Of a stretch of 59,830 bases of DNA, positions 18,298 through 56,000 are shown piece after piece. The notes under the pieces were generated by a model, which made no database searches, was not told where the DNA came from, and saw only the letters and a list, made by a program, of their open reading frames with translations. Location: assembly GCA_964559945.1 (NCBI GenBank), contig CAZLJY010000004.1, forward strand, positions 1-59,830, given 5' to 3'. The stretch is from an uncultured Gammaproteobacteria bacterium (GTDB lineage Bacteria; Pseudomonadota; Gammaproteobacteria; Xanthomonadales; SZUA-38). A program made the translations under genes and the position numbers. How positions within the stretch are numbered: position 1 is the first letter of the stretch; each line of letters opens with the position of its first letter.

Positions 18298-19140
18298 TTA
18301 CTCGAAGCCTGAGAAAAAGATCATGCCCGGGGGTTGGCCGAATAGTTCAATACCTGGAATGAAATCAAAAGCATCAACGGGACCTAGGCTAACGGGGCCC
18401 ACGGATTCTAAATCGGCGGCAAAAAAATTCAGCACGACGTTGTTGCTTGAGCCTACGACCATTCCAAACTCGCCGGTTGCTGGGCTACTGAATGCGACGC
18501 TATTTTGGTTACTGAAAATGTAGGCACCATTAATTGATCGCCCATTGCGGATGTCGCGAACGCTGCCTTCCAAATTGGATAAGGCAAAACAAAATCCGAG
18601 TTCGGTGATGACCAATTCAAACCGGTATTCAACCGCTCCTGAGTTACGACAATTTCTTAACCGATAAAATGTGCGAAAGTCGCTTCTGTTGATCTGAGAA
18701 TCGTTCAACAGCTCAATAGTACTGCTACCCCGCGGCGCATTCGCGCAGGACTGCAAAACCACTGGCGCCACCGATGAATCAATCACCGAGGTCCTGGGAA
18801 AACCCAAAACCTCGACCTGAAGGTTTGTCGCTGCATTGCTGCCTACAGGGATAATCCTAAGCTCGCCCCGGACCTGGCAAAAAGGATATTCATCGCCATA
18901 AAAAATCATCCAGTCCAGATCTTGGCTGCCATCAAGCGATCGTCCGGAAATGCGCCAGCCCTCATCGCGCTCAATTAAGTTATCTGAGGGAACCGTGAAA
19001 TCCGGCACCCCACCATTCATTCCTGCGCCGAGGAAGGGTAGAGCGTCATCGGGTTCTATTGGGTCTGTCTGAGCCACCGCATCCGCAACGGAAGCAATGA
19101 CAGATAGACCCAACAACATTGGCATCACGAACCTAAACAT
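18298..19140 (-). CDS. Hypothetical secreted protein ending in IFFSGFE
   Basis: Signal peptide MFRFVMPMLLGLSVIASVADAVAQ (start taken at 19140); no family recognised. Confidence 0.7.
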   Translation of the reverse strand: MFRFVMPMLLGLSVIASVADAVAQTDPIEPDDALPFLGAGMNGGVPDFTVPSDNLIERDEGWRISGRSLDGSQDLDWMIFYGDEYPFCQVRGELRIIPVGSNAATNLQVEVLGFPRTSVIDSSVAPVVLQSCANAPRGSSTIELLNDSQINRSDFRTFYRLRNCRNSGAVEYRFELVITELGFCFALSNLEGSVRDIRNGRSINGAYIFSNQNSVAFSSPATGEFGMVVGSSNNVVLNFFAADLESVGPVSLGPVDAFDFIPGIELFGQPPGMIFFSGFE

Positions 19141-19267
19141 ACTCCAAGCCTCTGTCGACGAAAGTCCTGACTCAAGAAAACTTTCGTTACAGGGCAAAGC
19201 TAGACCCCAGCGCTTTCGACAAACCCGGGGCCGTTCCAGGGGGGCAGATCAAATTTGCTGGCCTCCT

Positions 19268-19594
19268 TTAGCTTGAACCAGCGAGCTGTGCCCCAGACTC
19301 CTGGCCACTGGTGGCCGGCGCAAGTAGCAGATAGAGCAAGGGACCAAACGAGCCAAGAAATAAGGTGATCAAGGCAAAGCCCCAGAAGTTTCGGCCCTTT
19401 ACCTGGGCATCGCGATACATCCAGATGAGAATTAGCAACATGCCGATGACCAGGTCGGCAAATACCTGCCAACCTGCTGGGCTGGGTAGGTGATACTCAA
19501 AAATCCCCACATAACCCACCGTCCAAACGGCGTAGGTGCTCAGCAGCGCAAAGGGGATAAGAAGGATCAGACTCAATCGTTTCATTGGGGTCAT
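19268..19594 (-). CDS. DUF2834-like small membrane protein
   Basis: WQVFADLVIGMLLILIWMYRDA...ITLFLGSFGPLLYLL; start at 19594 or 19585. Confidence 0.72.
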   Translation of the reverse strand: MTPMKRLSLILLIPFALLSTYAVWTVGYVGIFEYHLPSPAGWQVFADLVIGMLLILIWMYRDAQVKGRNFWGFALITLFLGSFGPLLYLLLAPATSGQESGAQLAGSS

Positions 19595-19649
19595 GGGGTT
19601 TTTCTCCAGTGGACACAGCCCTATCATTGGCGAAGCTGGTAACCCCAGC

Positions 19650-19680
19650 AATGACCTCAGAGGTTATTGCCATAGGTCAT
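19650..19680. promoter_or_regulatory. Putative operator of the divergent XRE/MmyB regulator
   Basis: AATGACCT-CAG-AGGTTATT palindrome plus a third half-site AGGTCAT at 19674-19680. Confidence 0.55.
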
Positions 19681-19721
19681 GAAGACACGGAAAATCGGGC
19701 AAAATCTCCGCGGACACAACA

Positions 19722-20552
19722 ATGAAGACCCTTTCACCTCAGCGCCCTGGCCCAGCCCAGTTTGGCGTCAACCTAAAACGCTGGCGAACCTTGCGCCGGC
19801 TGTCCCAGTTGGATTTAAGTTTGTCGGCGAACATCTCTCAGCGCCATTTGAGCTGGCTGGAAACCGGGCGCAGTCAACCCAGCCGAGCGATGGTGCTGCA
19901 GTTGGCCGAAGTGCTGGAGGTGCCACTGCGAAGTCGCAATGAGCTGCTCGACGCTGCCGGTTTCGCGAGCATGTATCCTCAACAAGGCCTTGAAGCCGAT
20001 GCGATGCAGGCCGTTCGCCAGGCGCTGCGACGCATGCTGGATCAACAGCTGCCCTACCCTGGTTTAGTGGTGGACCGAGAGTGGAACGTCATGATGACCA
20101 ATGCCTGCGCGGACGCTTTATTGCAGGCGGCAGGGGCCGATGATCTTTGGCAAGCCAGCGGCAGTGATGAGGGGCAAAGAAACCTCGCTCTGTTGACTTT
20201 GCATCCCGCTGGGCTGCGGCCCATGTTAGCCAATTGGAACCAAGCGGCCCACGCGTTTGTGCAGCGACTTCGAGCCGACCTAAGCCGCTCCCCCGATGAA
20301 TCCCTGCGACAAAAAACCGAAGCGCTAATCGCGTTGGCCGGGGATATTCCTGAGCCGGAACTACCAGGTGCGCCGCTGTTACCCATGTTGACTCTGGATT
20401 TACGCTTGGGCGATCAACTCCTGCGAATGTTCAGCGTGATCTCCACCTTTGGCACGCCCCAGGATGTGACCACCGACGAACTGCGTATCGAGACGTTTTT
20501 CCCCGTGGACGACACCAGCGAGCAGATTTTTCGAAGCTTTTGCCCAGACTAA
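19722..20552 (+). CDS. XRE-family HTH regulator with MmyB-like ligand-binding domain
   Basis: LKRWRTLRRLSQLDLS...SQRHLSWLETGRSQPSR; C-terminal FSVISTFGTPQDVTTDELRIETFFP. Confidence 0.9.
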   Translation: MKTLSPQRPGPAQFGVNLKRWRTLRRLSQLDLSLSANISQRHLSWLETGRSQPSRAMVLQLAEVLEVPLRSRNELLDAAGFASMYPQQGLEADAMQAVRQALRRMLDQQLPYPGLVVDREWNVMMTNACADALLQAAGADDLWQASGSDEGQRNLALLTLHPAGLRPMLANWNQAAHAFVQRLRADLSRSPDESLRQKTEALIALAGDIPEPELPGAPLLPMLTLDLRLGDQLLRMFSVISTFGTPQDVTTDELRIETFFPVDDTSEQIFRSFCPD

Positions 20553-20568
20553 ACGGGCGGCCTAGGGC

Positions 20569-21741
20569 CTAATCCAAGGATGGCGGGCGCCAACCAAACA
20601 GGCGTTTGGTCTGCATGGCCTGATCGTTACTAAAAAGGGATGCACTGGGATTAGGGCTGGCAAACCGAGCCCCCGAGGCGCGGGATTCCAGTAGCACCCA
20701 GTTGGCCCGTTCCACTCGCTTTTTGCTATAGGCAGATAGCGCTTGAGACACCTCTGAGTGCTGATTTAGGGCGTGAATCATCTCGGCCGCATCTTCAAGG
20801 GCCATGGAGGCACCCTGGCCTAAAAAAGGCAACATAGGATGGGCGGCGTCACCCAGCAAAGCCACCCGACCGTCTTGCCAGCGGGACAACGGCTCTCGAT
20901 CGAACAATGCCCATTTGTAGCAGCCATCCTGGGGCAGTGCATCAATCACCGTTTGCACGGTGTCATGAAACCCCTCATAGGCCTGTCGGATTTCGCTAAC
21001 GCTAGCCTTTTGCCGCCAGCCCTCGTCGGTCCAATCGCTATCGCCAGCAAACATCACGCAGTTCAACAAACGACCACTGTCCAGGGGGTAAAAGACAAAA
21101 TTGCGTTCCTGGCCAATCCAGACCTGAGATGTTGGCTCAGCAAAGCTGGCCGCCAATCGTTCCATGGGGATCAACGCCCGCCAAGCGATATAGCGGGTAA
21201 AACGCGCGGCAAGTTGACCATGGATGGTGGCGCGGATATTGGACTTTAGACCATCGGCGCCAATGAGCACCTGAGCTTGCTGTGAGGATTGGTCCTCAAA
21301 CTTAAGGATTACTCTATCAGGGGTTTGTTCAAATGCCAGAACCCGAGAACCGGTGACCAAACAATGGGGATCTAACTGACGAACTTCCTGTGCCAGTAAC
21401 TCGTAAAGAGCCGCTCTTGGGGTCTGAAAATAGTAATCACCGAAGTGTTCTCGTACCGCCTCCCCGTAAGGAATGACTGACAACTGCTCGCCTGTGCGAC
21501 CGTTATAAATGCAGCCTCGCTGCGGCAAGTCAGATATCTGCAAAAGCTGATCACGCAATCCCAGGGCATCAAGGACCGCGGCGGCGTTTGGCGCAATGGA
21601 TAACCCGGCTCCCGATTCCGCGGGGTTTTCCCACTGCTCAAACACCCGTACTTTATGTCCGGCCTTGAGCAAACCCAGCGCCGTCGCCAGGCCGCCGATC
21701 CCGCCACCGGCAATCGCGATGTCGTGGGTTGACCGACTCAG
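20569..21741 (-). CDS. FAD-dependent monooxygenase (salicylate/hydroxybenzoate hydroxylase-like); probable CTG start
   Basis: IAIAGGGIGG Rossmann motif lies upstream of the ORF-track start (21672); also GADG and LLGDAAHPMLPFLGQGASMALEDA. Confidence 0.88.
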   Translation of the reverse strand: MSRSTHDIAIAGGGIGGLATALGLLKAGHKVRVFEQWENPAESGAGLSIAPNAAAVLDALGLRDQLLQISDLPQRGCIYNGRTGEQLSVIPYGEAVREHFGDYYFQTPRAALYELLAQEVRQLDPHCLVTGSRVLAFEQTPDRVILKFEDQSSQQAQVLIGADGLKSNIRATIHGQLAARFTRYIAWRALIPMERLAASFAEPTSQVWIGQERNFVFYPLDSGRLLNCVMFAGDSDWTDEGWRQKASVSEIRQAYEGFHDTVQTVIDALPQDGCYKWALFDREPLSRWQDGRVALLGDAAHPMLPFLGQGASMALEDAAEMIHALNQHSEVSQALSAYSKKRVERANWVLLESRASGARFASPNPSASLFSNDQAMQTKRLFGWRPPSLD

Positions 21742-23324
21742 AGCGCGGGCATCCCTAGCGTGTCCGGGTTAAGCAGGCCCGTTGGGTCTGTGACTTTTCG
21801 AATGGACTGAATCATATTCTGGGTCAGAGGATCCAGGCTGTCCCAGTAGGGATAGGCTTTACCGATTTGGAAATGGCCAGCATTGTGGGCCTGGTAAAGG
21901 GCAATTAACTCTTGGCGCAACTGACCGATGTACTCCCGCGCCTCAAGGTTTTCTGGATAGGTGGGCAGATTTTTAAGGTAATCAGCATCCACCGCTGTGT
22001 TGTGATAAATGCTCCTGGCGTCTTCCCAGTAAATGGCGATCTCGTACAGAAAGCCGGCAGACCCAACGTTTTCGAACATACCGCCAGTCCAGATTCCGTA
22101 TTGAGCGAACTGTTCGGCCCGCTCCTCAACAAAGGCATCAAAGGCAACGTGAAATGGCAGCACGTCTTCATGGGCCAAAATGCCATGCAGCGGCGCCCAA
22201 CGCTCACCCTTAGGGCCAAGGGTGGCGAACAGCGGCGCAAACGGCATACCCTGCACAACCGTAGGCACGGTGTTGGGAATTTCCTGCGCCACTTCAGCCA
22301 TCACCCGTCGCAGCTCCTGAGCTTTTGCTTCGGCATGTTTTTTATCCACCCCATCAATCAGGTAGTGACAGGAGTATTCGGCATCTTTCAACGCGCGGTC
22401 ACCGGCCATGCCCATTTTGGCCAACTGGGCGACGCCACTGGCCATGGAGCGGGCATTTTTTAGGACCGACAGCGCGATAGCGGTTTTACGTCCTGCCCGC
22501 TCTTCCCGGGCAATCTGTCCCTGGGAGAGGGATGCCGACAGGGCAAAGTGTTCATCATCCAGGCCCGCGATGGATGCCGCCGTCATGCCCCCATGCATTG
22601 CGGCAAAATTCTGAAACGAAAACGACAGCGCTTCAAAGGCTGGTCGCAGACTGATGAGGGGCAAGGTGACTGTGACTTTGACACCCAGCGCGCCACAGTC
22701 GCCACAAAACAGCCCCGTGGTATCGGGCCCGTAACTGCGAGAAATTGGCTTGGTACCGGCGGCAGCAGAACCGGTGTGGAACGTCTCACCGCTGCTGGTG
22801 GCTATTTCCATACTCAGCACCGATGCACCAGAAACGCCGTAAGCCCCGGTTCCATGGCTAATGGAATTTTGGCTAATGCTGCCAGCTACTGTGGCCGCAA
22901 TGCCGGAAAAAGGTCCCCAGAATGGGGTTCGCAGTTTCAACGGATCCAGTGCAGCCTTCAATTGCGCCCAGGTAACGCCAGCGTCTACCGTCACGTAACC
23001 GCCGACTTCATTGATATCAATAGAGGTCAGCGCCCGGGTATCGATTAGCAGCGTATTTTCCCGAGTGGCCAGGTAAGCATCGGTGTAGGAGGCACCGCCA
23101 CCGCGAACAATGATGGGTGCAGCAAAATCAAAGGCGACCTTCAAACAGTTAAGCAACGCCTCTCGGTCGGGAGGTTGAACCACCGCCCCGGGAGCCACAC
23201 CAGTGCGGTAAACGTCCGTTGCAAGAAACTCCGCTTCCCGCTCATCGCTGATCAAAACTTTGGGACCAACCCGATCGGCGATGGCTGAGGCAAGGCTTAT
23301 ATCGGCGTTACTGACGGTTTGCAT
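21738..23324 (-). CDS. FAD-linked oxidase (VAO/PCMH-GlcD superfamily), paralog 1
   Basis: VRGGGASYT, TVDAGVTW, ATVAGSISQN, GALGVKV, C-terminal DPTGLLNPD. Confidence 0.88.
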   Translation of the reverse strand: MQTVSNADISLASAIADRVGPKVLISDEREAEFLATDVYRTGVAPGAVVQPPDREALLNCLKVAFDFAAPIIVRGGGASYTDAYLATRENTLLIDTRALTSIDINEVGGYVTVDAGVTWAQLKAALDPLKLRTPFWGPFSGIAATVAGSISQNSISHGTGAYGVSGASVLSMEIATSSGETFHTGSAAAGTKPISRSYGPDTTGLFCGDCGALGVKVTVTLPLISLRPAFEALSFSFQNFAAMHGGMTAASIAGLDDEHFALSASLSQGQIAREERAGRKTAIALSVLKNARSMASGVAQLAKMGMAGDRALKDAEYSCHYLIDGVDKKHAEAKAQELRRVMAEVAQEIPNTVPTVVQGMPFAPLFATLGPKGERWAPLHGILAHEDVLPFHVAFDAFVEERAEQFAQYGIWTGGMFENVGSAGFLYEIAIYWEDARSIYHNTAVDADYLKNLPTYPENLEAREYIGQLRQELIALYQAHNAGHFQIGKAYPYWDSLDPLTQNMIQSIRKVTDPTGLLNPDTLGMPAL

Positions 23325-23489
23325 AGTTTAGATCTCCCTACCTCAACAGCAATTTTACGGCATGGACTCTGCATAGAGCCGCCGATCACGGATTCCTCAG
23401 GGTGCTGAAAAACCCCCAGTTGAAGCGGTCATCTTGACCCTGGTCACCGGCAATCGCAATATCAGTTTGGCAAAGCTGCTATGCCATGA

Positions 23490-24683
23490 CTATTTCAGCA
23501 CCTGGGCTACCGATTGAACAACGTAATCCATGTTGCTAGCGCGAAGACCAGCGACGTTAAAGCGCGTATCACCAATGATGTAAATCGCAAACTCATCGCG
23601 CAGCTGCGCCACCTCTTCTGGGCTGACACCCAGTAGAGAAAACATACCGAACTGTGCATCGATCAATGAAAAATCCCGACTCACACCGGCCTGGGCCAGT
23701 TTGCTCACCAGCGAGCTCCGCTGTCCATTAATTCGGTTTCGCATAGCCGCCAGTTCGTCATGCCATAACGCGGTAAGCTCGTCGGATTCAAGAATAATGT
23801 TCACCATGCCGGGGCCGTGAGTTGGCGGCATCGAGTAGATGCCTCGAGTGGTGGCATTGATGATCGTTTCGGCATCAGACGCTTTTTGCGCATTGGGCAA
23901 CACCATGGACAGTGCACCGCAGCGCTCCCGATATAGTCCAAAATTCTTAGAGCAAGAACTGGTGACAATATATTCATCGGCGTTTTGCGCCAGCAGGCGA
24001 ACCAGAGTGGCATCGGTGTCCAGATCCACACCAAACCCTTGGTAGGCCATATCCACCAGGGGTAAAAATCGCCGCTCAACTGCCAGCTCCACAATTTCAG
24101 ACCACTGGGCCGGGGTTGGATCAATCCCCGTTGGGTTGTGACAACAGGCATGCATCACCACCACATCGTCCGGACCCAACTTCGCTAGGTCTTGCTTCAT
24201 GCCATCAAAATCCAGGCCGCCGCTGGCTTGGTCTCGATAGCGGTAATACTCAACCGAAAAGCCTGCCGCGGTAAACAAGGCATCGTGATTGGCCCAGGTG
24301 GGGCTAGGCACCCAAATTTTGCTGGTGGACTTAACCCGCCGAATGACCTCAGCGGCGACTCGCAATGCGCCGGTGCCACCCGGGGTTTGGACAGTGGCCA
24401 TGCGCCCTGCGGCCAACGCGTCGCTGTCAGCGCCCAACAGCAGCTTGCTGATGGCCTCGTTAAAACCCACCACGCCCCGTGGGCCTAAGTAACATTTGCT
24501 GTTTTCCTGTTTGTGCAGCATTGCTTCAGCACGCTTCACACAATCCAATACCGGCGTCTGGCCAGCGTCGTCTTGGTAAACCCCGACACCTAAATCGACC
24601 TTCTGTGGATTGGTATCCGCTTTGAACGCGGCCATTAGCCCTAGAATGGTGTCCGGTGGTACCCGAGAAATCTGCTCAAACAT
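23490..24683 (-). CDS. Aromatic amino acid / aspartate aminotransferase (TyrB/AspC type)
   Basis: PPDTILGL, DLGVGVY, QTPGGTGALR, HACCHNPTGID, DMAYQGF, SCSKNFGLYRERCGA. Start at MFEQ (24683). Confidence 0.95.
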   Translation of the reverse strand: MFEQISRVPPDTILGLMAAFKADTNPQKVDLGVGVYQDDAGQTPVLDCVKRAEAMLHKQENSKCYLGPRGVVGFNEAISKLLLGADSDALAAGRMATVQTPGGTGALRVAAEVIRRVKSTSKIWVPSPTWANHDALFTAAGFSVEYYRYRDQASGGLDFDGMKQDLAKLGPDDVVVMHACCHNPTGIDPTPAQWSEIVELAVERRFLPLVDMAYQGFGVDLDTDATLVRLLAQNADEYIVTSSCSKNFGLYRERCGALSMVLPNAQKASDAETIINATTRGIYSMPPTHGPGMVNIILESDELTALWHDELAAMRNRINGQRSSLVSKLAQAGVSRDFSLIDAQFGMFSLLGVSPEEVAQLRDEFAIYIIGDTRFNVAGLRASNMDYVVQSVAQVLK

Positions 24684-24941
24684 GATGCGTAAACGCCTTT
24701 TCGTTAAGTGGGTGGTTAGTGATCGAAAGTTTACCGTGATAGCGGCCTCAACGCGGACCAATTTTTCATTTTTTTGATCCATAGCGCTTTGAGCTACCGG
24801 ATCTAGTCTATTGGCACTCCCAAGCAATGCTGAAACGCGGCATTTAGATGCTGGTGTCGAAGGGCTTGTCGAACAAAACGGTTCTTAGAACTTATACTCA
24901 TACCATGAGCTCAAGTCTTGGGCGCTGACAACGGATACAGC

Positions 24942-26225
24942 ATGCAAATGAACCCTTTCCTAGCCACCGTTCTGCTAGTACTGACATTACCCGTCTTTGC
25001 AAAAGATGCCCCAGCTGGTGACCGGTCGAATTCTGCAGCCAGCCAAGTTGGCATATCCGTCGATGCCCTAAACCAACTGAGCTCGGTGTTGCAAAGCTAC
25101 GTCGACGATGAACGACTGGCCGGCGCAGTGGTGTTAGTGGCGCGCAAAGGTCAGCGGGTTTACCTGGAGTCCTTTGGTCACCGGGACCGAGAGCTTGATG
25201 AGAAGATGGAGACTGACAACATCTTTCGCATCGCCTCTCAAACCAAGGCGTTGATTAGCGTTGGGATCATGATGCTCCAGGAACAGGGCCAACTGCTGAT
25301 TTCCGACCCCCTGTCTCACTATCTGCCGGCGTTCCAGAACACAACGGTGGCGGTGCCGTCCACTGATGGAGAATACCTGGTCCTGCCTGCCGAAAGGCCG
25401 ATCACTTTGCGTGACCTGCTGACCCATACCGCGGGCATTGGTTATGGAGCGGGCCCCGCCGAAGTAAAGTGGCAACAGGCCAACATCACCGGCTGGTATT
25501 TTGCTGATCGCGATGAGCCTATTGGCGATACCGTCAATCGCATGGCAGCGCTTCCCTTCGATGCCCAACCGGGCGAACGCATGGTCTACGGCTACTCCAC
25601 CGATATTCTGGGCGCTGTGATCGAACAGGTCAGCGGCCAATCTCTTGCTCAATTTTTGCGGACTCAAATCCTAGACCCGCTGCAAATGAACGACACCCAT
25701 TTTTATCTACCGCCAACTAAACGACATCGACTGGCCGCTGTGTATTCGTTGACCGAAGATCAATCCCTCATTCGGGCACCAGACCCCGGCGGCATGATTG
25801 GCCAGGGCGCCTACCTTGATGGCCCACGCATGAGTTACTCCGGTGGCGCTGGATTGCTTTCAACAGCCAATGACTATGGCCGATTTTTACAAATGATGCT
25901 CAATGGCGGTGAGTTAGATGGGGTAAAGCTGTTAAGTCGAAAATCCGTTGAACTGATGACAACCGATCACGTTGGAGACATTGCCAATGCCTTTCTCGGT
26001 AACGGCGTGGGCTTTGGTTTGGGTTTTTATGTTGTCACGGACCTGGGCGCTCGAGGTCAGCCGGGATCGGTGGGCGAGTATGGCTGGGGCGGCGCTTATC
26101 ATTCCAGCTATTGGGTCGACCCGGAAGAAGAATTGGTGGTGGTGTACTTATCTCAGCTAATCCCTGGGCCGGATCGAACCGACCAAGACAAACTGCGGGC
26201 ACTGGTCTACAGCGCCCTGGAGTAA
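24942..26225 (+). CDS. Secreted serine hydrolase (class C beta-lactamase/esterase family)
   Basis: FRIASQTK (SxxK), LLTHTAG, YGYSTD, WGGAY; signal peptide. Confidence 0.9.
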   Translation: MQMNPFLATVLLVLTLPVFAKDAPAGDRSNSAASQVGISVDALNQLSSVLQSYVDDERLAGAVVLVARKGQRVYLESFGHRDRELDEKMETDNIFRIASQTKALISVGIMMLQEQGQLLISDPLSHYLPAFQNTTVAVPSTDGEYLVLPAERPITLRDLLTHTAGIGYGAGPAEVKWQQANITGWYFADRDEPIGDTVNRMAALPFDAQPGERMVYGYSTDILGAVIEQVSGQSLAQFLRTQILDPLQMNDTHFYLPPTKRHRLAAVYSLTEDQSLIRAPDPGGMIGQGAYLDGPRMSYSGGAGLLSTANDYGRFLQMMLNGGELDGVKLLSRKSVELMTTDHVGDIANAFLGNGVGFGLGFYVVTDLGARGQPGSVGEYGWGGAYHSSYWVDPEEELVVVYLSQLIPGPDRTDQDKLRALVYSALE

Positions 26226-26282
26226 ATGGTCTGAGGAACACCGGCAAGACCCAGCTCCCATCCGGCGACAACAGCCGGGGTC

Positions 26283-28969: not shown

Positions 28970-29064
28970 GGGTTTCTCCAGCGGTATTGAATTTGGTTCG
29001 CTTAACAATACCAGCTGTCTACTGAAAGGTCTGTGAAAACGCTCCCCGCAGCTTAGCAGCCTGT

Positions 29065-29088: not shown

Positions 29089-29098
29089 CAACACCCTA

Positions 29099-31360
29099 CT
29101 AGGGAGAGGTCAGCGATTCAAAACCGGACCGAAACAACGCCGGGTCAATCAATACGGGCCCTGGAATGCGGTTATCTCGCCGGTTCAATCCCAGTTGATC
29201 ACTGGCATTGCTGCCCCAACAGCTGACCGCACCGGCGCTGCTCAGGGCACAGGTATGGGCGGCACCGGCGCTGATTTGCACAACCCCGCCAGCTAAGCCT
29301 AAAACCGCCACCGGTCCCAGCCGAGAATCGGTGGAATCGTCGCCTAATTGCCCATTGCTGTTTTCACCCCAACACAGTGCACTGCCGTTTTGAAGCGCGC
29401 AGCTGTGAGAGTCGCCGGCGCTGATGCTGGTGACCCCGCTAGCGAGCCCCTGGACCCGCTGGGGCAACAATTGAATTAAGGTGTTGAAGCCAAGACCGAG
29501 CTGACCATCCTCGTTTTCTCCCCAACACAACGCCTCCCCGCCGCTAACCACCGCGCAGCTATGCTCGGTGCCCGCACTGACCACACTGGTCCCTCTTACG
29601 GGAAAATCTAGAGCCACCGCTGTGAACGCCGTGTCCGTTGCATTGTTGCCAATCTGGCCGGCACTATTTAAACCCCAGCAAAAAGCGCTACCGTCGTTGG
29701 TGCTAGCACAAGAGTGAAAGCCCCCTGCGGTAACGCTAGTGACGCCGCTGCGAAGGTCAATAACCTGCACCGGCGCCGTTTGATTGGACAGGCTAGCATC
29801 ACCCAATTGACTTTCGATGTTGCGTCCCCAGCATTGAGCAGCGCCGCTGGCGGTACTGGCGCAGGTATGAAAGTCGCCCGCTTCAATCATGGCGGCTCCA
29901 CTGACCAAGCCGCTTACGACCGTGGGCGTTAGCTGATCTGGCAACGCTTCCACGCCAATCTGACCAAACTCATTGCTACCCCAGCACAGTGCCTGGGACC
30001 CTTGGGTCACCGCACAACTGTGGGATCGGCCGGCGGATATTTGGCTGACGTTGCTGAGGCCCGCCACGTTCACCGGGATCGGTTGGCGCTCAGTGTCGCC
30101 GACCCCCACTTGGCCCCGGGAATTGCTACCCCAACATCGAACACTGCCATTGCTCAATAAGGCACAACTGTGTGAGGCGCCGGTAGCGATGGACTGAACG
30201 CCGCTTTGTAGTCCGGGTACCGGTGTTGGGGAAAGTCTAAACCAGGGCTCGTTGTCTCCCAGCTGGCCGGCAGCGTTGCTACCCCAGCACTGCACCGTTG
30301 CATCTTGGGTCAGTGCACATGTGCTGGTTCGACCGGCATGAACTTCAACCGCGTTGTTAAGGTTCGCTGTAGTCGCCGGCGGGTAACGATCTTCCCTAGA
30401 GCCATCACCCAGCTGACCAAAGGCATTGTCAGACCAGCAACGCACCGTTCCGTCATTCAATGTGGCACAGGCGTGGTCGTAACCGGCGCTCACCTGACTG
30501 ACCCCCGAGGCCAGGCCTTCAATATCAAACAGTTCAAGGGGGTCCGGGTCGAAGGTGTCAAACACACCTAGCTGACGGTCGTAATTGTCGCCCCAGCATT
30601 TAACCCCGCCACTGTCGGTGACTGCGCAGTTAAAATATTCCCCAGCGCTCACTGACCTGACACCACTTTGCAAACCCGCCACTGCGGTTGGTCTACCGAC
30701 GGACTGAAAGCCGCAGCCGAAGGTATTGCAAATACGATCAACCACCCCCCAACAGTCCACGGCGCCGTTGATATCCAGGGAGCAGGTGTTGGCTCGGCCT
30801 GCACTAATGGCCGTGATATTTTGTCGGGTACCCACTGGGGTGGCCTGTTGTCGATTATCCGTATCGCCAGTACCTAGCTGCGCATCACCGTTAAAACCCC
30901 AGCAGCTAACCCCACCATTGCTGCGCAGGGCGCAGGCGTGAACACCGCCAACACTGACCGACTGCGCATCGTCAATGGCCCCTACCATCACCGGCTCGTT
31001 GCTAGAGCGGGTATCGCCATTTCCCAGTTGTCCAAGAAAATTGTCACCCCAGCACTGTACATTGCCATTGCTCATCGCCGCGCAGGTATGGCGTTCACCG
31101 GCACTGACCGAGACCACGCCACTGGAAAGACCGATGACGTCAGCCGGCGTAAAACGGGATTGATTGTCACCGGTGCCCAGTTGGCCGTTGAAATTGTTGC
31201 CCCAACATTTCACCCCGCCGGCCTCAGTGAGCACGCAGGCATGGGACCGACCCTTAGCGAGCTCAACGACCCCCGATAGGGGCGCCAGATCCTGTGCTGC
31301 CGCTAAGCCAGTCACCGCGGTTAGCAACACCGCGAATGTCAAAAACCCTAATCTGTGCAT
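29099..31360 (-). CDS. Secreted RCC1-repeat protein (14 repeats) ending in LFRSGFESLTSP
   Basis: Signal peptide; 14 copies of H[ST]CA...CW[GS]xNxxGQ[LVI]G, one of them degenerate. Confidence 0.92.
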   Translation of the reverse strand: MHRLGFLTFAVLLTAVTGLAAAQDLAPLSGVVELAKGRSHACVLTEAGGVKCWGNNFNGQLGTGDNQSRFTPADVIGLSSGVVSVSAGERHTCAAMSNGNVQCWGDNFLGQLGNGDTRSSNEPVMVGAIDDAQSVSVGGVHACALRSNGGVSCWGFNGDAQLGTGDTDNRQQATPVGTRQNITAISAGRANTCSLDINGAVDCWGVVDRICNTFGCGFQSVGRPTAVAGLQSGVRSVSAGEYFNCAVTDSGGVKCWGDNYDRQLGVFDTFDPDPLELFDIEGLASGVSQVSAGYDHACATLNDGTVRCWSDNAFGQLGDGSREDRYPPATTANLNNAVEVHAGRTSTCALTQDATVQCWGSNAAGQLGDNEPWFRLSPTPVPGLQSGVQSIATGASHSCALLSNGSVRCWGSNSRGQVGVGDTERQPIPVNVAGLSNVSQISAGRSHSCAVTQGSQALCWGSNEFGQIGVEALPDQLTPTVVSGLVSGAAMIEAGDFHTCASTASGAAQCWGRNIESQLGDASLSNQTAPVQVIDLRSGVTSVTAGGFHSCASTNDGSAFCWGLNSAGQIGNNATDTAFTAVALDFPVRGTSVVSAGTEHSCAVVSGGEALCWGENEDGQLGLGFNTLIQLLPQRVQGLASGVTSISAGDSHSCALQNGSALCWGENSNGQLGDDSTDSRLGPVAVLGLAGGVVQISAGAAHTCALSSAGAVSCWGSNASDQLGLNRRDNRIPGPVLIDPALFRSGFESLTSP

Positions 31361-34902: not shown

Positions 34903-34918
34903 TGGGTCCGGTTGACGA

Positions 34919-43949: not shown

Positions 43950-43952
43950 CCC

Positions 43953-45870: not shown

Positions 45871-46001
45871 TATCCTAAGCGCCTGCCCGAAGCATCCGCT
45901 TAATCTCGGGTTTGGCCTGCGAATCTAGCGATACACCTGAAAGCATCTGTGCATTCGCCGGTCTCTTGCAATGACTTGAATAAAAGCCCGGGGAGAGAAC
46001 A

Positions 46002-46775: not shown

Positions 46776-46870
46776 GGGAGCACTAACGGCGGCGGCTTGG
46801 CGCTGATCAATCGCCACCTGAATTGGCAAACAGGGCCCGCTTCTTTGTCCGATGAACCGCAACCGGACGG

Positions 46871-48439
46871 TTAGATAAAATCGCGGATAGCTGAGACAAA
46901 TTCGTTGGATGATGGCTCACGGCCCAGCAACAGATGATTGTCACTTTCCAGACCTAGAAATTGGGCATTAGGAATTGCCGATGCCAATTCGATCCCGGTT
47001 TGCACCGGGATACGCTGATCGCGCAGGGAATGGATCACCAGTGTTGGTACTTGTAACTCCGGCAGCAAGTGACGAACGTCAATGTCCCCAAATGCCGACA
47101 AAAACCTCACCGCATTTTGCGGCGAGGTTGTTGAGCGCTGAAATTCGTTGAACCACTCCAACTCCTGCGCTGTGGCTGTTGGCATAAAGGTAGATGAAAA
47201 AATTTGTCGGTAGGCGGGATTATCCTGCCCCCAACCGGTTGCGGTCAGCGTCAAGATGGCTTCGCGCTCACGAATGGTTTGTGGGCTTGCCTCGATACGC
47301 CAGCCTGCCGGATACCCACCAAACAAAATCAGCTTGGAGACACGATGTGGATGTTTCACCGCATAGGCGATTGATACAGCTGCCCCCTGAGAAATCCCCA
47401 ACAGTGCGAAGCGCTCGACCCCCGACGCATCCACCACCGACTCAAGATCAGCGACGAAGGCATCAAAACTCAAATCGTCCACCTCCCAGTCTGACAATCC
47501 GTTGCCACGTTCATCGTAGCGAATCAGTCGGTAGTCCATGGCCAATTGCCGAAACAGCGGACTCCAGATGGGTGAGCCCCAGTCCAATTCCAAGTGACTG
47601 AGCCAATTGGCCGCTTTCACCAGCGGCAGCCCCTGACCGACCGTGGCGTAAGCAATATTGACGCTATCTTCGGCTTTACAAAATTGGATTTTTTGTCGAT
47701 GTAAAAATTGCCGAGCATCTTTAGGTGCTGTCTCATTTCTGACGCTGTCACCTGCCGTGTCCGGCGCGATCCAATCAACGGCGGCTTTTTGGAATCGCTG
47801 GGTAAACTCCTGGTTACATTCTTGAGCCTCTTGGGCTAACCCAAACTGCTGCAAGCGCTGGATGAGGTTGCTAGCGGCGCTGCGGCTAAAAGGTTCTGCT
47901 TCACTCCAAGCTCTTGCCAGAGGCAGCTGCTTTTTTGGGGATATATCTGGGTGTGTGGCCAACCGCGCCATGATGCGCTCCCGTAGGTGCTGAATTTCCT
48001 GACGCTGGGCACAAAGCCAGCCATCAAACGCCGGCTGGTCGGATAGGTCACAGCCGTCCAGCAAGGTCTCGCTCAGCAGTGTTGAGATTTCCTCCAGTCT
48101 GTCGACGCTGATTTTCTCGCTGTCGATTTCTGCTGCCAGCAGACGCCGGTCTATTTCAATGTTAGTAGTCTGGATCCCCACTCGCTCGCGATCGGCAAGC
48201 AAGTAGTCTTCGCCGTTCAACTTCACCAGTGGTCGAATTTTGCTCAAAGACCAGCGCAACGCCCCCCGGGGGTCATCGGGTTTCCACCATAATAATTCGC
48301 ATAGACTCTCCCGGCGGTGGGTGCGTCCCGTGAGCAACAAATACCCCAGCAATGAACGTGTGCGCCTGGACGCCGGCAGCGCCAGCGGCTCGCCGTCGCG
48401 GAAAACCGTGAGTTCACCCAGTGTCTTGACCGTTAGCAT
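46871..48439 (-). CDS. SARP-like regulator (wHTH + BTAD-like) fused to an alpha/beta hydrolase
   Basis: LGELTV...RESLCELLW...ALRWSLSKIR; C-terminal ANWLSHLELDW, YDERGNGLSD, GISQG, SDNH. Confidence 0.85.
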   Translation of the reverse strand: MLTVKTLGELTVFRDGEPLALPASRRTRSLLGYLLLTGRTHRRESLCELLWWKPDDPRGALRWSLSKIRPLVKLNGEDYLLADRERVGIQTTNIEIDRRLLAAEIDSEKISVDRLEEISTLLSETLLDGCDLSDQPAFDGWLCAQRQEIQHLRERIMARLATHPDISPKKQLPLARAWSEAEPFSRSAASNLIQRLQQFGLAQEAQECNQEFTQRFQKAAVDWIAPDTAGDSVRNETAPKDARQFLHRQKIQFCKAEDSVNIAYATVGQGLPLVKAANWLSHLELDWGSPIWSPLFRQLAMDYRLIRYDERGNGLSDWEVDDLSFDAFVADLESVVDASGVERFALLGISQGAAVSIAYAVKHPHRVSKLILFGGYPAGWRIEASPQTIREREAILTLTATGWGQDNPAYRQIFSSTFMPTATAQELEWFNEFQRSTTSPQNAVRFLSAFGDIDVRHLLPELQVPTLVIHSLRDQRIPVQTGIELASAIPNAQFLGLESDNHLLLGREPSSNEFVSAIRDFI

Positions 48440-48655
48440 CGGCACAAAAAAACGATAGCAGTCGAAATTTCGTTCGGAAAATCGTTAATTGAAGAAGGTT
48501 CAGATCTTTGGGTTTTGAACCCATTGAGGTGTCTTTTCAGCAACTGAAGCAGAGCTCCTGAGCGAATAAAAAGCGTCTACCGGCAATTATGCCTCAATTG
48601 CCCCAAAGGCCAGATTATTACTTTGCATAGGTTGCTCCTGGATCGATAGTGAAAA

Positions 48656-48698
48656 TTCCACGCTGACTTCCACGGGCTGACAACGCATACTTCCACGC
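48656..48698 (+). promoter_or_regulatory. Phased TTCCACG direct repeats (putative SARP/wHTH operator)
   Basis: TTCCACG at 48656, 48668 and 48691, with a degenerate GACAACG at 48679; spacings 12, 11, 12 nt. Confidence 0.6.
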
Positions 48699-48869
48699 TA
48701 CTACGGTATCAATCGGCCACAGCGGCCGAACTAATGGGTCTGGCCGATACGCAAATCGTTGGCAGAGACCCCAATAATCACAAAATGATCAAGTTTCCGT
48801 CATTTCTTTAGATCCGGTTGGCCCTACATTTGACCCTTATTCGAAACCTCTTCAGCGAGACCTGAGTTC

Positions 48870-50054
48870 ATGATCCTAAAAAGCCTCACTACCATCGCAG
48901 CACTCATTACTTTGCTATCAACCCAGCAAGTCGCGGCCCAGGGCGCCCCGGCCGACGCCCTGGATGCAAGCTGGATTCGGGTTTGCGCAGGCGCTCAACC
49001 CAACAGCACGTTTTTCGATCGCTGTCAGGAAATTATCAATGCAGGCCCAGGCTCTGCCGGCAGGCGCTCCGCCGCCGCAGTCGGGAATAATTTAGGGGTA
49101 GTGGGGGCGCAAGGTCGGCGCGCCACCCGAGATGACAGCACAGCGGACTCTGCGAGAGTGCGCCAGGACTTTGGTGCCTGGTCCATACTGACCAACGCCA
49201 GGCTAGGGAATCGGGATAGAGATCCCAGTGATTTTGAAAATGGCTATTCCGAAGACGTTACAGCATTCGATATCGGCCTGGATTACCGACTCAACAATCA
49301 GTGGGTGATTGGCGGCCTGGCCACTTTTGAAAACGCTGACGCAGATTTCGATGGGCAGGCAGGCGAACTGGATTCTGACAGCCAGTCCCTCACAGCAATG
49401 ATCAACGGCGCGTTTGCCAACGGTTGGTGGGCCCAGGGCTACGTGGGTTATCGAAATCTTGAGTACGATGGGATCCGAAATATTGCTTATCAGCTGGTCG
49501 TTAATGCTGGCACTCCCCAGGAAGCTGAATTCGACGTCGCAGATCTTGCCAGCAGCTCCACCGATGGGGACCAACTCATCGCCGGCATTGGCTTCGGGAA
49601 AACCTTGGCTAGGGGTGGGTGGTCATTCACGCCTCAGATCGCCCTCGACTTCGCAGACACCGATATCGATGCTTATGCGGAGCAAAGCGGCAACGGACTG
49701 GCCCAGAGATTTTCCGGTCAGTCCGTCAAATCCTTGAACCTATCGGCAGGAATGCAGATTTCGCGAGCGATCAGCACCGGTTTTGGCGTCCTGCAGCCCT
49801 ATGGTCGGTTGGCATGGCAGCATGAGTTTGACAATGATGCCCGAGAATTAACATCGAGCTTTGTTGGCGACAGCTCCGGTGCAACGATCTCCTACGCCAC
49901 CCAATCACCGGACCGAAATTTCGGCGACCTGTCCTTTGGACTGGCGATGGTTTTCGCCAATGGCAAGAGCGCTTACATTGGCTATCGTCATTTGCTTGAG
50001 CATCGGTTCTTAGACGATGGTCAATTGCAGATCGGCGGTCGATTCGAGTTCTAA
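48870..50054 (+). CDS. Autotransporter-type beta-barrel outer-membrane protein with a very short passenger
   Basis: Signal peptide; IGLDYR, QPYGRLAWQHEF; ends in GGRFEF (BAM-type C-terminal Phe). Confidence 0.85.
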   Translation: MILKSLTTIAALITLLSTQQVAAQGAPADALDASWIRVCAGAQPNSTFFDRCQEIINAGPGSAGRRSAAAVGNNLGVVGAQGRRATRDDSTADSARVRQDFGAWSILTNARLGNRDRDPSDFENGYSEDVTAFDIGLDYRLNNQWVIGGLATFENADADFDGQAGELDSDSQSLTAMINGAFANGWWAQGYVGYRNLEYDGIRNIAYQLVVNAGTPQEAEFDVADLASSSTDGDQLIAGIGFGKTLARGGWSFTPQIALDFADTDIDAYAEQSGNGLAQRFSGQSVKSLNLSAGMQISRAISTGFGVLQPYGRLAWQHEFDNDARELTSSFVGDSSGATISYATQSPDRNFGDLSFGLAMVFANGKSAYIGYRHLLEHRFLDDGQLQIGGRFEF

Positions 50055-50090
50055 TCCCCCAATCATGGTGACCTCTTTTTCGATTTTTGG

Positions 50091-50121
50091 ATAAAAAAAG
50101 GCCGCGCTGAGCGCGGCCTTT
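50091..50121 (-). terminator. Intrinsic terminator, strongest on the minus strand
   Basis: AAAGGCCGCGC-TGA-GCGCGGCCTTT with a 7-A run on the left, i.e. a U tail on the minus strand. Confidence 0.8.
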
Positions 50122-50163
50122 CGTGAGTCGGGCAGAACCTACCCTCGTGTTTTCACTGAACCA

Positions 50164-50229
50164 TCAAACCGCGATGGCTCCCGGTGCACACGACTGCAGA
50201 CTCCAAACCATTCGATACTCACCAGACAT
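50164..50229 (-). CDS. Putative 21-aa small ORF MSGEYRMVWSLQSCAPGAIAV
   Basis: Preceded by AAGGAGGTGATC-AC-ATG (12-nt complement of the 16S 3' end) and followed by the terminator above. Confidence 0.5.
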   Translation of the reverse strand: MSGEYRMVWSLQSCAPGAIAV

Positions 50230-50496
50230 GTGATCACCTCCTTCAGTTCACTCTTGGGACTTTGATCATGCCCCATTATTCAATCTCAAACCACCCGCAA
50301 GAAGGGCCTTTGACCCCTTGCCCACCACCCACCGAGTTACCCCGCAATAGGCCTGAGACCAGAACCTAATGATGATTTGATCCGATCAAATCGATTCTGC
50401 AATCGGCGACGTCGGCCTAGAATGAACCATAGCGGCGGGTGAACGGACAAAAATTAGACAAATTTCATTCTTAAAATCAATTACCATTTCGTTTTC

Positions 50497-50541
50497 TATT
50501 GATAGCTTCTATATATTTGAACCATAGATACAACTCAATAG
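50497..50541. promoter_or_regulatory. Possible OxyR/LysR-type site upstream of katG
   Basis: ATAG at 50502 and 50524 (22 nt apart), each starting a T-N11-A; only a partial match to ATAG-N7-CTAT. Confidence 0.4.
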
Positions 50542-50548
50542 ACGCTGA

Positions 50549-52759
<2,211 letters not shown>

Positions 52760-52773
52760 TCATTAGCGAGTGT

Positions 52774-52800
52774 GACGGCGGGCTTGCCCGCCGTCCTTTT
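52774..52800 (+). terminator. katG terminator
   Basis: GACGGCGGG-CTTG-CCCGCCGTC followed by CTTTT. Confidence 0.8.
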
Positions 52801-52993
52801 GCAAAGAAACAACATCCCCCATCAATCGTGGGCCATGCCCCACTCAGCGTAGCCCTTACACTGCCGAGGGATAACCGTTGCGACCCTAATTAACGATAAA
52901 CCCCTCACGGGAGCCACAATCTAACGCTGAAAACACGCTAGTCAAAAGCGTATTCAAGACACCTGCTTTTGAACTGTGCAGTACTGTAAGAGC

Positions 52994-53024
52994 AAAAAAA
53001 AGCCCGGCAAAATGCCGGGCTTTT
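52994..53024. terminator. Terminator of the S8 protease gene (bidirectional shape)
   Basis: AAAAGCCCGGCA-AAA-TGCCGGGCTTTT. Confidence 0.82.
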
Positions 53025-53046
53025 GGTTTCACATAAAACGGTTAGA

Positions 53047-56000
53047 TCAGGGCGTTGCAGACTCCTCAAAGCTATCCCTGAACAACACATCACCCAGAAT
53101 CTCCACCGTGACTTCAGCCTCCGCACATTCTTGCGGCTGACCATCGTCACACACCTCATAGGAGAAGCTATCGGTACCGGCGTCCATCCCTGTGCTGGTG
53201 TAGCTAAAGGTGCCATCTTCGTTGAGAGTTACATCGCCCATCGTAGGCATGACTGTGGGTGTCACCGTCACGGTGAGACCGTTGCCTTCGGGGTCAGTGT
53301 CGTTCGCCAGCAGTGAAGTTTCGCCAGCGTCGGTTTCTGTCACCGTGCCGCCTACTGCCACTCTCAACGCATCAGCCATGGCGTTCGGGCCAGCATTGAC
53401 GTCGGTGATGGCCACGCTAACCGTTGCCGTTGAGCACGCGCCAAGGTCATCACAAACCTCGTAGTCAAAGCTATCGGTGGTGGTTTCAGAACCATCGTGT
53501 ACATACTCAAAGGTTCCGTCAGCGTTTAGCGTCACCGTGCCGTTTGCAGGCTCCACCGCCGGCGTTGGGCTGACAGAAATAGGGTCTGACTCCGGATCGC
53601 TATCGTTGGCCAACAGTGAGTCGGCGCCGCCGTCAACCGTGCTGACCGCGCCATTTTCTGCCACCGTCAAGGCATCCGCCATAGCAATAGGCGGATCATT
53701 TGCTGCCACGATCGTGACCGCCACTGTGCCGGTGACACAGCCTTGATCTGGGGCGTTGTCACACACCTCATAATCAAAGCTATCAGTAGTGGTTTCAGAA
53801 CCGTCATGGGTGTAGCTAAAGGTCCCGTCCTCGTTCAACACCAGCTCTCCGTTGGCAGGCGCCGTTGCGGCCATCATGCTGACGGTCAGCGGATCGCTAT
53901 CGAAATCCGTGTCATTGGCCAGCAGGCTAGCCTCGTCACCGTCCACCATGGTTGCCGTCGCCGCTTCAACCACTGATAGGGTTTCACCGGTCACCGCTGG
54001 CGGGGTGTTGTTGACGATCATTGAGACCGGTACAACCGCCGCAGGCTGGGACATATCGTTAGATTCAATGCACTCAAACGCGCCAAAAGTTCCTCGCGTG
54101 AAACCCGTTGAATCGATTGTGACAGAGACAGTGCTGCTGGAACCGCTAGCAACAGTGCCCGTGGTTGGGTCTTCCGACAACCAGTTTGCCCCGCATTCCA
54201 CATCCGCGGTTACACGAAGGTTCAGACTTTGCTCAGCGATTCCGAGAGTAGTAAAAGCGGTCCAGTCAGGCACCCCGAAATCCGCGCCAATTAGCGACGC
54301 ATTGGCGGTACCGGTCGCTTGCGGGCCATAAAACCATCCCCACGACGCAGTTGTCGTGGGCACAATGCTGACCCAGTAACTACCCGCATCCAAGGACAAG
54401 GTGCTGCCCAGCGCCTGCAAATCGAAAGAGATGGTGTCACCAGCAAGGGAAAGCCCCACAGAGGGCACTGGCACTATCAGTTCCAGCAGCGCATTGACAT
54501 CAGCGTCGAAAGGAGACCCTGCCGGGGCACCATTGGCATCGGCCCAGATATATAAAGCAACTTGTGTTGCTGTATTCACTAGATCAGTGCCATTTTGGAA
54601 TCCCTCAGCGGTAACCGAAGTAATGTTAGTGGTGCCGGAAAGCACGATGTCGTCTGCAGATGCGATGGCGTTGGTGCCCGGAATAACCCGCGATAGGATT
54701 CCGCCACCTGATGCGGTGGGCTGATCGACAGGGACAATGGTGCCCTGAGCATTGGGATTAACATCGAAAATCAAATCAGAGCCACCGGAACTCGCGATAG
54801 TAATGTCTGCCGCTGTCGTCGTGTCCGGGTCCAGCTGAGCCGCAATGCTATCAGGCGTTACGGTAATTTCTGCTCCCAGGGGAAACACGGTTACCGGCAT
54901 ACCCAACGGGTCTGTCGCGCCGTATTCCAATTCAACGCGAGCAAACTTCCACTCATCCCGGGTCACAGCGCCGCTGGTGTCTGCCTCGATGGTAATTTGC
55001 TGAGACAGGCCAGGCAGAATGGTGAACGTTGCAGGGGTTACTGTACCGGTCACCTCGCCATCTCCCACGAAGGTCGCCGTGAAGGCAACAGGGGCATCCG
55101 ATACGCTGCGCAGAGTGCGTGTCCAACTGCAGGTGGTGCCGCAGGATTCGTCTGACATGCTGGCCAGGTTCAGTGTTCGAGCATCTCCACCTGTATCCGG
55201 ATCAGCCAGTAGGTAGCGAGTTGCCACCTCGTCCAGCACCACTGGCGTCAATGCCGCATTGGTAAGATCAATGCGGCCAGCGCCCATGTCAAAGGCTGTG
55301 GCGGTGCCGATGGTGCCATCGCCGTTATCATCCATCATGTTCGGATTGGCGGTCAGCATAATGGCCGATTTCACTTCAGACGGCGTCCAATCTGGATGCA
55401 GGTCGCGAACCAGAGTGGCTGATCCCGCATTGTGAGGGCTGGACATTGAGGTACCGGAAAGCAGTTGAAACTCCGGTGCGCCGCTGGCGCCTGAATCGTC
55501 CGCAAAGGCCGCCAACACCGAAACACCCGGGCCGGCTATATCTGGCTTAACGATGTTTTCATCGTTGGGTCCCCTGGAACTGAAGTTGGCAACGATATCA
55601 GCGGAGTCCGAATCCACCGCCGACATGGCAGGATCTTGCGCCGTGAGGGTCGCCGTTATGGTACCGACTCCCGCGTTCTCAACAATTTCGTCCCGTACCT
55701 GTTCTCCGTCTGCTTGGGAAATCATCACGCTAGGAATCGTCGTGGCTTCCAGTGCACCCATGGAAAACGGCGTGCCGGGACGGTTGGTAAATACCACCAC
55801 GGCGCGAGCGCCGGCGGCCGTTGCGTTATCCACTTTCTCAGCAAATCCGCAGCTACCGCGAGAAATTAACGCAATGGTGCCGTCACCGCCGTCAGCGTAA
55901 GTGTCGGCGGGAATTCCTCCACCAGCATTACAACCCTCCGGGTTGCCATCAAAGTAGCGAATTTCATCGGTGATAGGTGCGGTCAACACTACTGGGCTGG

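Follow-up and report, generated by a model that had tools for sequence, protein, structure and literature searches.

Do unrelated exported proteins in some Gammaproteobacteria share a short C-terminal label that has no membrane anchor? The question is raised by contig CAZLJY010000004.1 of an uncultured gammaproteobacterium. This whole metagenomic contig of 59,830 bases was analyzed and is referred to here as the window; the same genes are also on Logan and ENA contigs. Three genes on its minus strand end in variants of one motif (...MIFFSGFE, ...LFRSGFESLTSP, and ...LFRDSFEESATP, each followed by the stop codon). The comparisons below show that this tail is a portable nine-residue module that is under selection at the protein level and that, in a number of Gammaproteobacteria, is overwhelmingly terminal on exported proteins, most of them rich in beta structure. 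Our preferred explanation, which we give a probability of about 45%, is that the tail is an autonomous, anchor-free tag that would be read by a partner after Sec export, for outer-membrane translocation or for docking at the cell surface. The tails and the genes that carry them are:

18298-18321, minus strand: tail 1, I-F-F-S-G-F-E at 18301-18321, with the stop codon directly after it (18298-18300)
18298-19140, minus strand: carrier 1, a 280-amino-acid exported protein without a family, which probably starts with the ATG at 19140
29099-29137, minus strand: tail 2, L-F-R-S-G-F-E (29117-29137), then SLTSP, then the stop codon
29099-31360, minus strand: carrier 2, a 753-amino-acid exported beta-propeller with RCC1 repeats (Pfam RCC1, RCC1_2, and WD40_RLD)
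53047-53085, minus strand: tail 3, L-F-R-D-S-F-E (53065-53085), then ESATP, then the stop codon
53047-57276, minus strand: carrier 3, an exported subtilase of about 1,409 amino acids, with an I9 propeptide, S8, PA, and fn3_6 domains, and three Big_9/cadherin-like repeats

A sequence-only reading of this DNA had reported these three tails, and we found all of them on the minus strand and nowhere else: in the six-frame translation of the whole window, the pattern [ILVMF]F.{1,2}[GSDN]FE matched only the three tails. Each match sits 0 to 5 residues ahead of the stop codon of a long open reading frame (ORF). If one position were drawn at random in each of the ORFs (280, 753, and 1,409 amino acids), all three would fall in the last 12 residues with a probability of about 6e-6, by our arithmetic. 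The proteins end in ...GQPPGMIFFSGFE (carrier 1, whose mechanically defined ORF is 18298-19197), ...DPALFRSGFESLTSP (the RCC1 protein), and ...LGDVLFRDSFEESATP (the subtilase), in each case up to the stop codon. The exact 280-amino-acid product of carrier 1 was already recorded, as P0001.

The three carriers had been described as having unrelated cores, signal peptides, and no C-terminal anchor, and this description holds. Scans with Pfam and NCBIfam confirmed that the cores are unrelated; carrier 1 had no match to either database when the full protein was scanned. All three N termini (MFRFVMPMLLGLSVIASVADAVAQ, MHRLGFLTFAVLLTAVTGLAAAQ, and MRRSITASLIGAALATGAMTGGAMA) resemble signal peptides according to a crude hydrophobicity heuristic. 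The tails contain neither a hydrophobic (transmembrane) helix nor a basic cluster. None of the window's other signal-peptide-like proteins has the tail, so the tail marks a subset of the exported proteins.

Next, we took a single genome from each GTDB species and searched it with a degenerate DNA version of D[LF]IFx[DN]GFE in which stop codons were not specified. The scan yielded at least 120 loci, and about 26 chance matches would be expected across the whole genome collection (from our bit count); it sampled one narrow variant of the motif, and its counts per genome are lower bounds. Among the proteobacterial matches listed, 65 of the 75 that lie within ORFs are within 15 residues of the stop codon, compared to an expectation of 6% (binomial p = 2e-68), and 34 end exactly in ...GFE. 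Across the 65 proteobacterial tails listed, no residue follows the motif in 34 cases and 1 to 4 residues follow it in 25, with Pro often the last. The spacing between the motif and the C terminus is not constant (0 to 15 residues), and neither is the final residue, which is usually E or P but may also be N, Q, L, or another. Five extra residues that end in [ST]P, which had been noticed on the RCC1 and S8 proteins, are indeed present in those two proteins, but they are not a general feature. From the tails compared here, the consensus is D-[LVI]-[IVL]-F-x-[DNS]-[GS]-F-E, then 0 to 5 residues that often end in Pro.

The scanned carriers are from Marinicella, Marinicellaceae, Wenzhouxiangellaceae, Dokdonella, Pseudofulvimonas, Rhodanobacteraceae, and Lysobacterales, as well as from 'Alcanivoracaceae' metagenome-assembled genomes (MAGs), with taxon names given as written in the sequence records. 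Those from Lysobacterales include MAGs. This distribution bears out the statement, in the sequence-only reading, that similar tails occur in Xanthomonadales or Wenzhouxiangella-like genomes. The Marinicella isolates among the matches are M. litoralis KMM 3900, M. pacifica, M. marina S1101, and strain W31.

If we consider the 8-kb loci around the matches along with the window, then 92 ORFs have the tail; these include about 20 flanking ORFs whose tails deviate from the seed pattern and the three from the window. Some genomes contain many carriers: Marinicella sp. W31 has at least 8 carriers in 40 kb, three tandem paralogues with the tail are encoded at one of its loci (L024), and another locus (L047) has three extra carriers. 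The 70 complete carriers match 70 different Pfam families, including Beta_helix/NosD, Calx-beta, SBBP and other propellers, FG-GAP, Peptidase_S8, Peptidase_M36, reprolysin-like M12B, GSDH, LTD, Big_5, Kelch, and RCC1. An enrichment in proteins with signal peptides is evident: by our crude, home-made hydrophobicity rule, which was the same for both groups, 54 of 63 carriers (86%) have a signal-peptide-like N terminus, versus 120 of 291 neighboring ORFs (41%; Fisher p = 7e-11).

The tail is also conserved within families. The 280-amino-acid protein has seven orthologues, from Lysobacterales/Xanthomonadales MAGs, that are 37 to 77% identical to it; the F-x-S-G-F-E end is invariant in these proteins and the preceding 40 residues or so vary. 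Similarly, the orthologues of the subtilase (P0009-P0013, 69 to 87% identity) retain D-[DE]-V-I-[FLV]-x-[DN]-[GS]-F-E followed by 5 to 8 residues. At the DNA level, synonymous codons vary freely at every degenerate position, and 121 distinct 27-mers encode the motif; therefore, selection acts on the peptide and not on a DNA element. The three tails of the window also differ from each other in DNA. We had considered a repeat, a terminator, or a recombination site that encodes the peptide by accident, and this free variation, within the window and beyond it, rules out such an element.

Might the three proteins end alike merely by accident or because of their composition? The motif is short, which would make this easier. 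However, the motif is unique in the six frames of the window, it is kept in orthologues, and it has a massive C-terminal bias in independent genomes; these results, with the signal-peptide enrichment, refute the chance explanation, and we give it negligible weight. That the tail is a modular element common to unrelated exported proteins, as proposed from the window alone, is supported by the C-terminal bias, by the 70 Pfam families, and by the excess of signal peptides.

What does the tail replace? The tail is present at the end of 28 of the subtilase's best 120 homologues. The Marinicella-type subtilases have another domain order and end in ...TMTVEGLSDLIFANGFE, ...DLIFKDGFEGTP, or ...DLIFENGFEPLAP, then the stop codon. 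Homologues from Stenotrophomonas, Luteimonas, Lysobacter, and Arenimonas lack the tail and end in ...LTVTP, which is the point at which the tail is attached in the others, and in four subtilase homologues, a transmembrane-type C-terminal domain replaces the tail. For RCC1, a HMMER search returned mostly giant multi-repeat proteins that are not orthologues, and we used them only to tally C termini: the representatives P0187, P0196, and P0259 have the tail at their C termini, an IPTL-like transmembrane C-terminal domain is present in P0249, and the ends of P0140, P0147, and P0257 are similar to it, being hydrophobic plus basic. CSLREA or choice-of-anchor Q proteins (P0279, P0285, P0286, and P0391) end in CDIGAxE...[IV]FxxGFE, and the end of the choice-of-anchor Q model (NF041518) directly precedes the tail in 16 of the 92 C-terminal 40-mers. 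The M36 carriers match the rhombosortase- and myxosortase-dependent M36 models. We take the choice-of-anchor Q and M36 models to be defined by NCBI through the interchangeable sorting signals that come after them. Across the S8, RCC1, M36, and choice-of-anchor Q families, then, the same slot holds the tail, a transmembrane-type C-terminal sorting domain, or nothing. Judging from these homologues, the tail is filling the slot that is used by IPTL-CTERM-like and other C-terminal sorting domains.

A second anchor-less C-terminal tail, [IVLF][YF]LP[LIV][IVL]x[RK] plus 0 to 5 residues, ends about 38 of the homologues that we fetched, from three unrelated families. Its carriers are S8 proteins (P0033, P0042, P0079, and P0093), RCC1 proteins (P0208 and P0233), and CSLREA/choice-of-anchor Q proteins (P0280, P0282, P0288, P0295, P0309, P0311, P0334, P0348, P0354, P0356, and others). 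The few source names that were available indicate Chloroflexota/Anaerolineae. It looks like another uncatalogued tag in the same slot.

The sequence-only reading had allowed that an existing hidden Markov model might already account for the tail, but no model in Pfam or NCBIfam covers it. Specifically, when we compared the 92 C-terminal 40-mers to Pfam and NCBIfam (including PF07589 and PF18203) with a threshold of E ≤ 10, no sorting-domain model matched the tail, and the three full proteins from the window gave the same result. We also found no description of the tail in the literature on sorting signals, the carrier genera, CSLREA, IPTL-CTERM, or the C-terminal motifs of type II secretion system (T2SS) substrates.

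Nevertheless, the tail resembles several known signals. Like the LPXTG (sortase), PEP-CTERM (exosortase), GlyGly-CTERM (rhombosortase), IPTL-CTERM, and MYXO-CTERM signals, it is a short signature at the extreme C terminus of many unrelated proteins with signal peptides. Both the tail and these tripartite sorting domains are restricted to certain lineages, are expanded within genomes, and occupy the same slot after choice-of-anchor Q, M36, S8, and RCC1 modules. However, the tripartite domains have a transmembrane helix and a basic cluster, while the tail has neither, comprises just 9 to 15 residues, and does not imply a membrane-embedded processing enzyme. Because it lacks the helix and the cluster, the tail is not of the LPXTG, PEP-CTERM, GlyGly-CTERM, or IPTL-CTERM type. 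No sortase, exosortase, or rhombosortase gene was found in the 8-kb flanks of the tail loci.

The C-terminal domain of the type IX secretion system (Por_Secre_tail) is also an anchor-free tag on Sec-exported cargo, mostly beta-rich enzymes and adhesins, and it directs both outer-membrane translocation and surface attachment. But this domain is a folded beta-sandwich of about 70 to 100 residues from Bacteroidota, whereas the tail is an unstructured nine-residue peptide, mainly from Gammaproteobacteria. Since the tail is not a folded domain, it is not a type IX C-terminal domain, and Por_Secre_tail had no Pfam match among the C-terminal 40-mers. The type I secretion signal of serralysin-type proteases consists of an acidic residue and hydrophobic residues at the end of the protein, and it resembles the tail as an uncleaved D-hydrophobic-hydrophobic-hydrophobic element. 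Type I substrates have RTX repeats and lack N-terminal signal peptides, whereas RTX is not among the most frequent Pfam hits of the tail carriers; because the carriers have signal peptides, the tail is not a type I signal. Ligands of PDZ domains and of the tail-specific protease (Prc) are recognized via the free carboxylate at a fixed distance, and the variable distance of 0 to 15 residues implies that the tail is not such a ligand. Finally, the beta-signal of outer-membrane proteins has a C-terminal aromatic residue and ends a beta-barrel, whereas the tail usually ends in E or P and is on soluble multidomain carriers; because the tail is not the end of a barrel, it is not this signal either.

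The substrates of the T2SS are similar to the tail carriers in that they are folded periplasmic cargo with Sec signal peptides, and they include large subtilases. We know of no linear signal for type II secretion. In Vibrio cholerae, the secretion of VesB depends on the PDZ domain of EpsC, and a transferable C-terminal Ig-fold of VesB carries secretion information (PMC12369372). Any link between the tail and the T2SS is pure conjecture.

Several observations weigh against a tag that is read by a partner, starting with the linkers of 3 to 6 residues, which could permit the tail to pack onto the preceding domain. The tail might then be a structural cap, a small beta-hairpin that packs back on its own protein's final domain and covers an edge strand or the end of a beta-helix; without any partner, it would shield beta-rich exported proteins from aggregation or proteolysis. 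Besides the short linkers, a cap would fit with the beta-rich nature of nearly all of the carriers (beta-helix, propellers, Ig-like, and Calx-beta) and with the Chloroflexota proteins described below, in which the same residues are integral to a folded domain, and the frequent terminal Pro would guard against carboxypeptidases. On the other hand, a single nine-residue sequence would have to fit RCC1 propellers, Big_9 repeats, BACON-like Ig domains, beta-helices, and unknown folds, and close homologues from the Xanthomonadaceae manage without it. Furthermore, some proteins have tandem double motifs at the C terminus (L058:4912-4968, which reads DLIFKNGFESDIIFKDGFE up to the stop codon; L062:1438-1497; and L068:6859-6924), as expected of a ligand motif but not of a cap.

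AlphaFold2 packed the tail in neither of the two carriers that we modeled. For the 280-amino-acid protein (with the alignment of its orthologues), residues 232 to 280 have no secondary structure and a predicted local distance difference test (pLDDT) score below 50. For the last Big_9 repeat of the subtilase with its tail, the repeat has a pLDDT of about 90 to 95, while the tail (residues 111 to 125) has a pLDDT of around 50 and no secondary structure. Across these two different carriers, the pLDDT of the tail is about 25 to 50. The alignments were shallow (8 sequences each), so this structural evidence is modest. It counts against the view that the tail is an integral strand of its own carrier. 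Overall, we consider the cap to be unlikely.

In the Chloroflexota, the motif has a structural role: among the matches listed, it is C-terminal in 0 of 21. Instead, it follows a Pro/Thr linker and begins a conserved domain, of about 207 amino acids, in exported proteins. This domain (alignment A4) starts with DLIFADGFESGNLSAWS, ends with FFDAFESRRQSYIGP, and sometimes occurs in tandem; copies are at L066:4231-4863, L081:913-1533, L023:4544-5164, L118:5606-6229, and other loci. It has no match in Pfam, in NCBIfam, or among PDB sequences. The opening of the domain, the first strand of a putative jelly-roll (LamG/CBM-like) fold, is identical to the tail (DLIFADGFESG....W); however, the domain continues with SGxLSxWS... 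and about 190 conserved residues, whereas the window's tails reach a stop codon within 0 to 5 residues and the rest is absent. C-terminal tails from Acidobacteriota and Thermoanaerobaculia (L075, L077, L094, L105, L114, L115, and L121) have the form DLIFxDGFExGxxxxW plus 0 to 5 residues, which is eight residues more than the bare tail. Their sequences place them midway between the bare tail and the complete domain of the Chloroflexota.

These proteins raise the possibility that the tail corresponds to the first beta-strand of the jelly-roll-like domain, detached from the rest, and that it completes a partner copy of the domain that lacks this strand, which would be a special case of docking. 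The residue-for-residue identity of the tail to the first nine residues of the domain and the intermediate tails that end in DLIFxDGFExGxxxxW would both be explained. But we did not find a strand-less acceptor domain: in the proteobacterial loci, the A4 profile matched only the motif itself. Also, the jelly-roll-like fold is putative, as the domain matches no Pfam or NCBIfam family and no PDB sequence. We view strand donation as quite unlikely.

Other matches show that the motif is not intrinsically a C-terminal signal: in several phyla, it is found directly behind signal peptides or between domains. Among the proteobacterial matches listed, 10 of 75 are not terminal: the motif is just after the signal peptide in L032 and L093 and ahead of further domains in L018, L035, and L104. 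Similarly, Wenzhouxiangella-type subtilases hold D-x-[LV]-F-x-D-R-F-E between domains. At L120 (5827-6120), from a Lysobacterales MAG, an IPTL-CTERM-like end, hydrophobic and then basic, lies about 90 residues past the motif (a weak Pfam hit, E ~ 0.1). If this weak hit is correct, then the tail motif and a classical sorting domain can coexist in one protein, which argues against a simple equivalence of the tail and IPTL-type signals. The signal peptides, too, were called only with the crude rule mentioned above. Finally, when we clustered the ORFs of the tail loci, we did not find a cognate receptor, protease, or transporter.

The only families, other than the carriers, that recur beside the tail genes are an extracytoplasmic function (ECF) sigma factor (PF07638) and a Ser/Thr kinase of about 850 amino acids with TPR repeats. 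This pair adjoins tail genes in seven loci from different genomes (the window, L019, L024, L040, L103, L109, and L129), and a dedicated role in regulating these exported proteins is probable. The window's copy lies between a CSLREA-like gene and a gene for a trypsin-like peptidase:

2810-5374 and 5399-5980, minus strand: window copy of the ECF sigma factor / Ser/Thr kinase pair
6222-8012: trypsin-like peptidase, upstream of the pair

The regulators and the internal motifs suggest another role for the motif, as a site for a periplasmic or extracellular protease that matures proteins at domain boundaries or that senses the load of exported proteins. In the latter case, the C-terminal copies would be sensors or leftovers and not address labels; DegS, which reads the C termini of outer-membrane proteins, is an analogue for such sensing. 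Where the motif is internal (P0014 and P0017-P0026), it does mark domain boundaries, the pair of regulators is a recurrent neighbor, and the window's peptidase is nearby. However, in its most common form (34 of the 65 tails listed), the tail has nothing after it, and a cleavage site would have no obvious use there. The distance from the motif to the carboxylate is not fixed, as it would be for ligands of PDZ domains or tail-specific proteases, and the neighboring regulators are of a cytoplasmic type. A processing or surveillance motif therefore seems very unlikely.

We return to the preferred reading, an anchor-free tag that is read after export. Many unrelated Sec-exported proteins (proteases and beta-helix, beta-propeller, and Ig-like adhesin-type proteins) would have acquired the tag behind a linker of a few residues. 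Once such a protein had been exported by Sec and had folded in the periplasm, its tail would remain exposed and flexible. A partner protein would then read the tail, most plausibly as an added strand on the partner's own beta-sheet; the alternation of hydrophobic residues in the tail and its tight x-[DN]-G turn suggest this. The cargo might then be translocated across the outer membrane (by type II secretion or by an unknown route) or be retained non-covalently at the cell surface. For the partner, the cellular destination, and the cleavage of the tail, we infer rather than observe. Our support for this reading is tentative because no machinery was found, because the motif has a structural role in Chloroflexota, because some motifs are not terminal, and because of the IPTL-like end at L120.

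Another protein in the window may also carry the tail, but its C terminus is off the contig:

1-1986, minus strand: CSLREA-like protein with Chlam_PMP repeats, of the choice-of-anchor Q beta-helix type

This gene has a CTLRDA motif at 1792-1809 along with the Chlam_PMP repeats, and the part in the window ends with ...FDQRGAPR. Every contig on record breaks inside this gene. The protein has no close orthologue in the protein database (the best match is 36% identical), but this best homologue and at least three others (29 to 40% identity) end in CDIGAxE...[IV]FxxGFE. In the homologue P0286, the region equivalent to ...FDQRGAPR is about 37 residues before the end of the protein (...CDIGAFELDGEVVPDAIFRDGFE, then the stop codon). 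The CSLREA-like protein is thus a plausible fourth carrier, as had been predicted. An ENA contig with the same genes ends, at L132:15350-15401, with ...PVSYTHLTLPTTPYV and diverges from the window there; this contig end falls within the repeat-rich CSLREA-like gene and has the appearance of adapter read-through.

The gene for the 280-amino-acid tail protein adjoins a cluster of genes for phenylacetate-CoA oxygenase. The cluster and a PaaZ-like gene are syntenic with the MAG GCA_045106555.1:

13841-17412, plus strand: phenylacetate-CoA oxygenase cluster (PaaA/B/C/D/E-like)
8245-10302, minus strand: PaaZ-like Aldedh-MaoC gene

How folded periplasmic proteins are selected for transport across the outer membrane or for display on it is a long-standing open question. 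It is possible, but doubtful, that the tail is a linear export or retention signal for such proteins, with dozens of substrates per genome in the Marinicellaceae, the Wenzhouxiangellaceae, and part of the Lysobacterales, and that it is read by a component of the T2SS or by a novel receptor in the outer membrane or at the surface. If so, it would be the first short, sequence-defined, anchor-free address label that takes proteins across the outer membrane or places them on it, and the label could be transferred to reporters. The question is directly testable because the tag is just nine residues, is defined by its sequence, and is found on proteases, adhesin-like beta-helices, and propellers in strains that can be cultivated: Marinicella litoralis KMM 3900, M. 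pacifica CGMCC 1.12181, M. marina S1101, Marinicella sp. W31, Dokdonella immobilis CGMCC 1.7659, and Pseudofulvimonas gallinarii DSM 21944. Even if the tail is only a structural cap, it would be an unusually portable nine-residue module that deserves a family model. For annotation, the tail flags a subset of the exoproteome in many uncultured Lysobacterales, and if it is transferable, it may serve as a tag for secretion or display.

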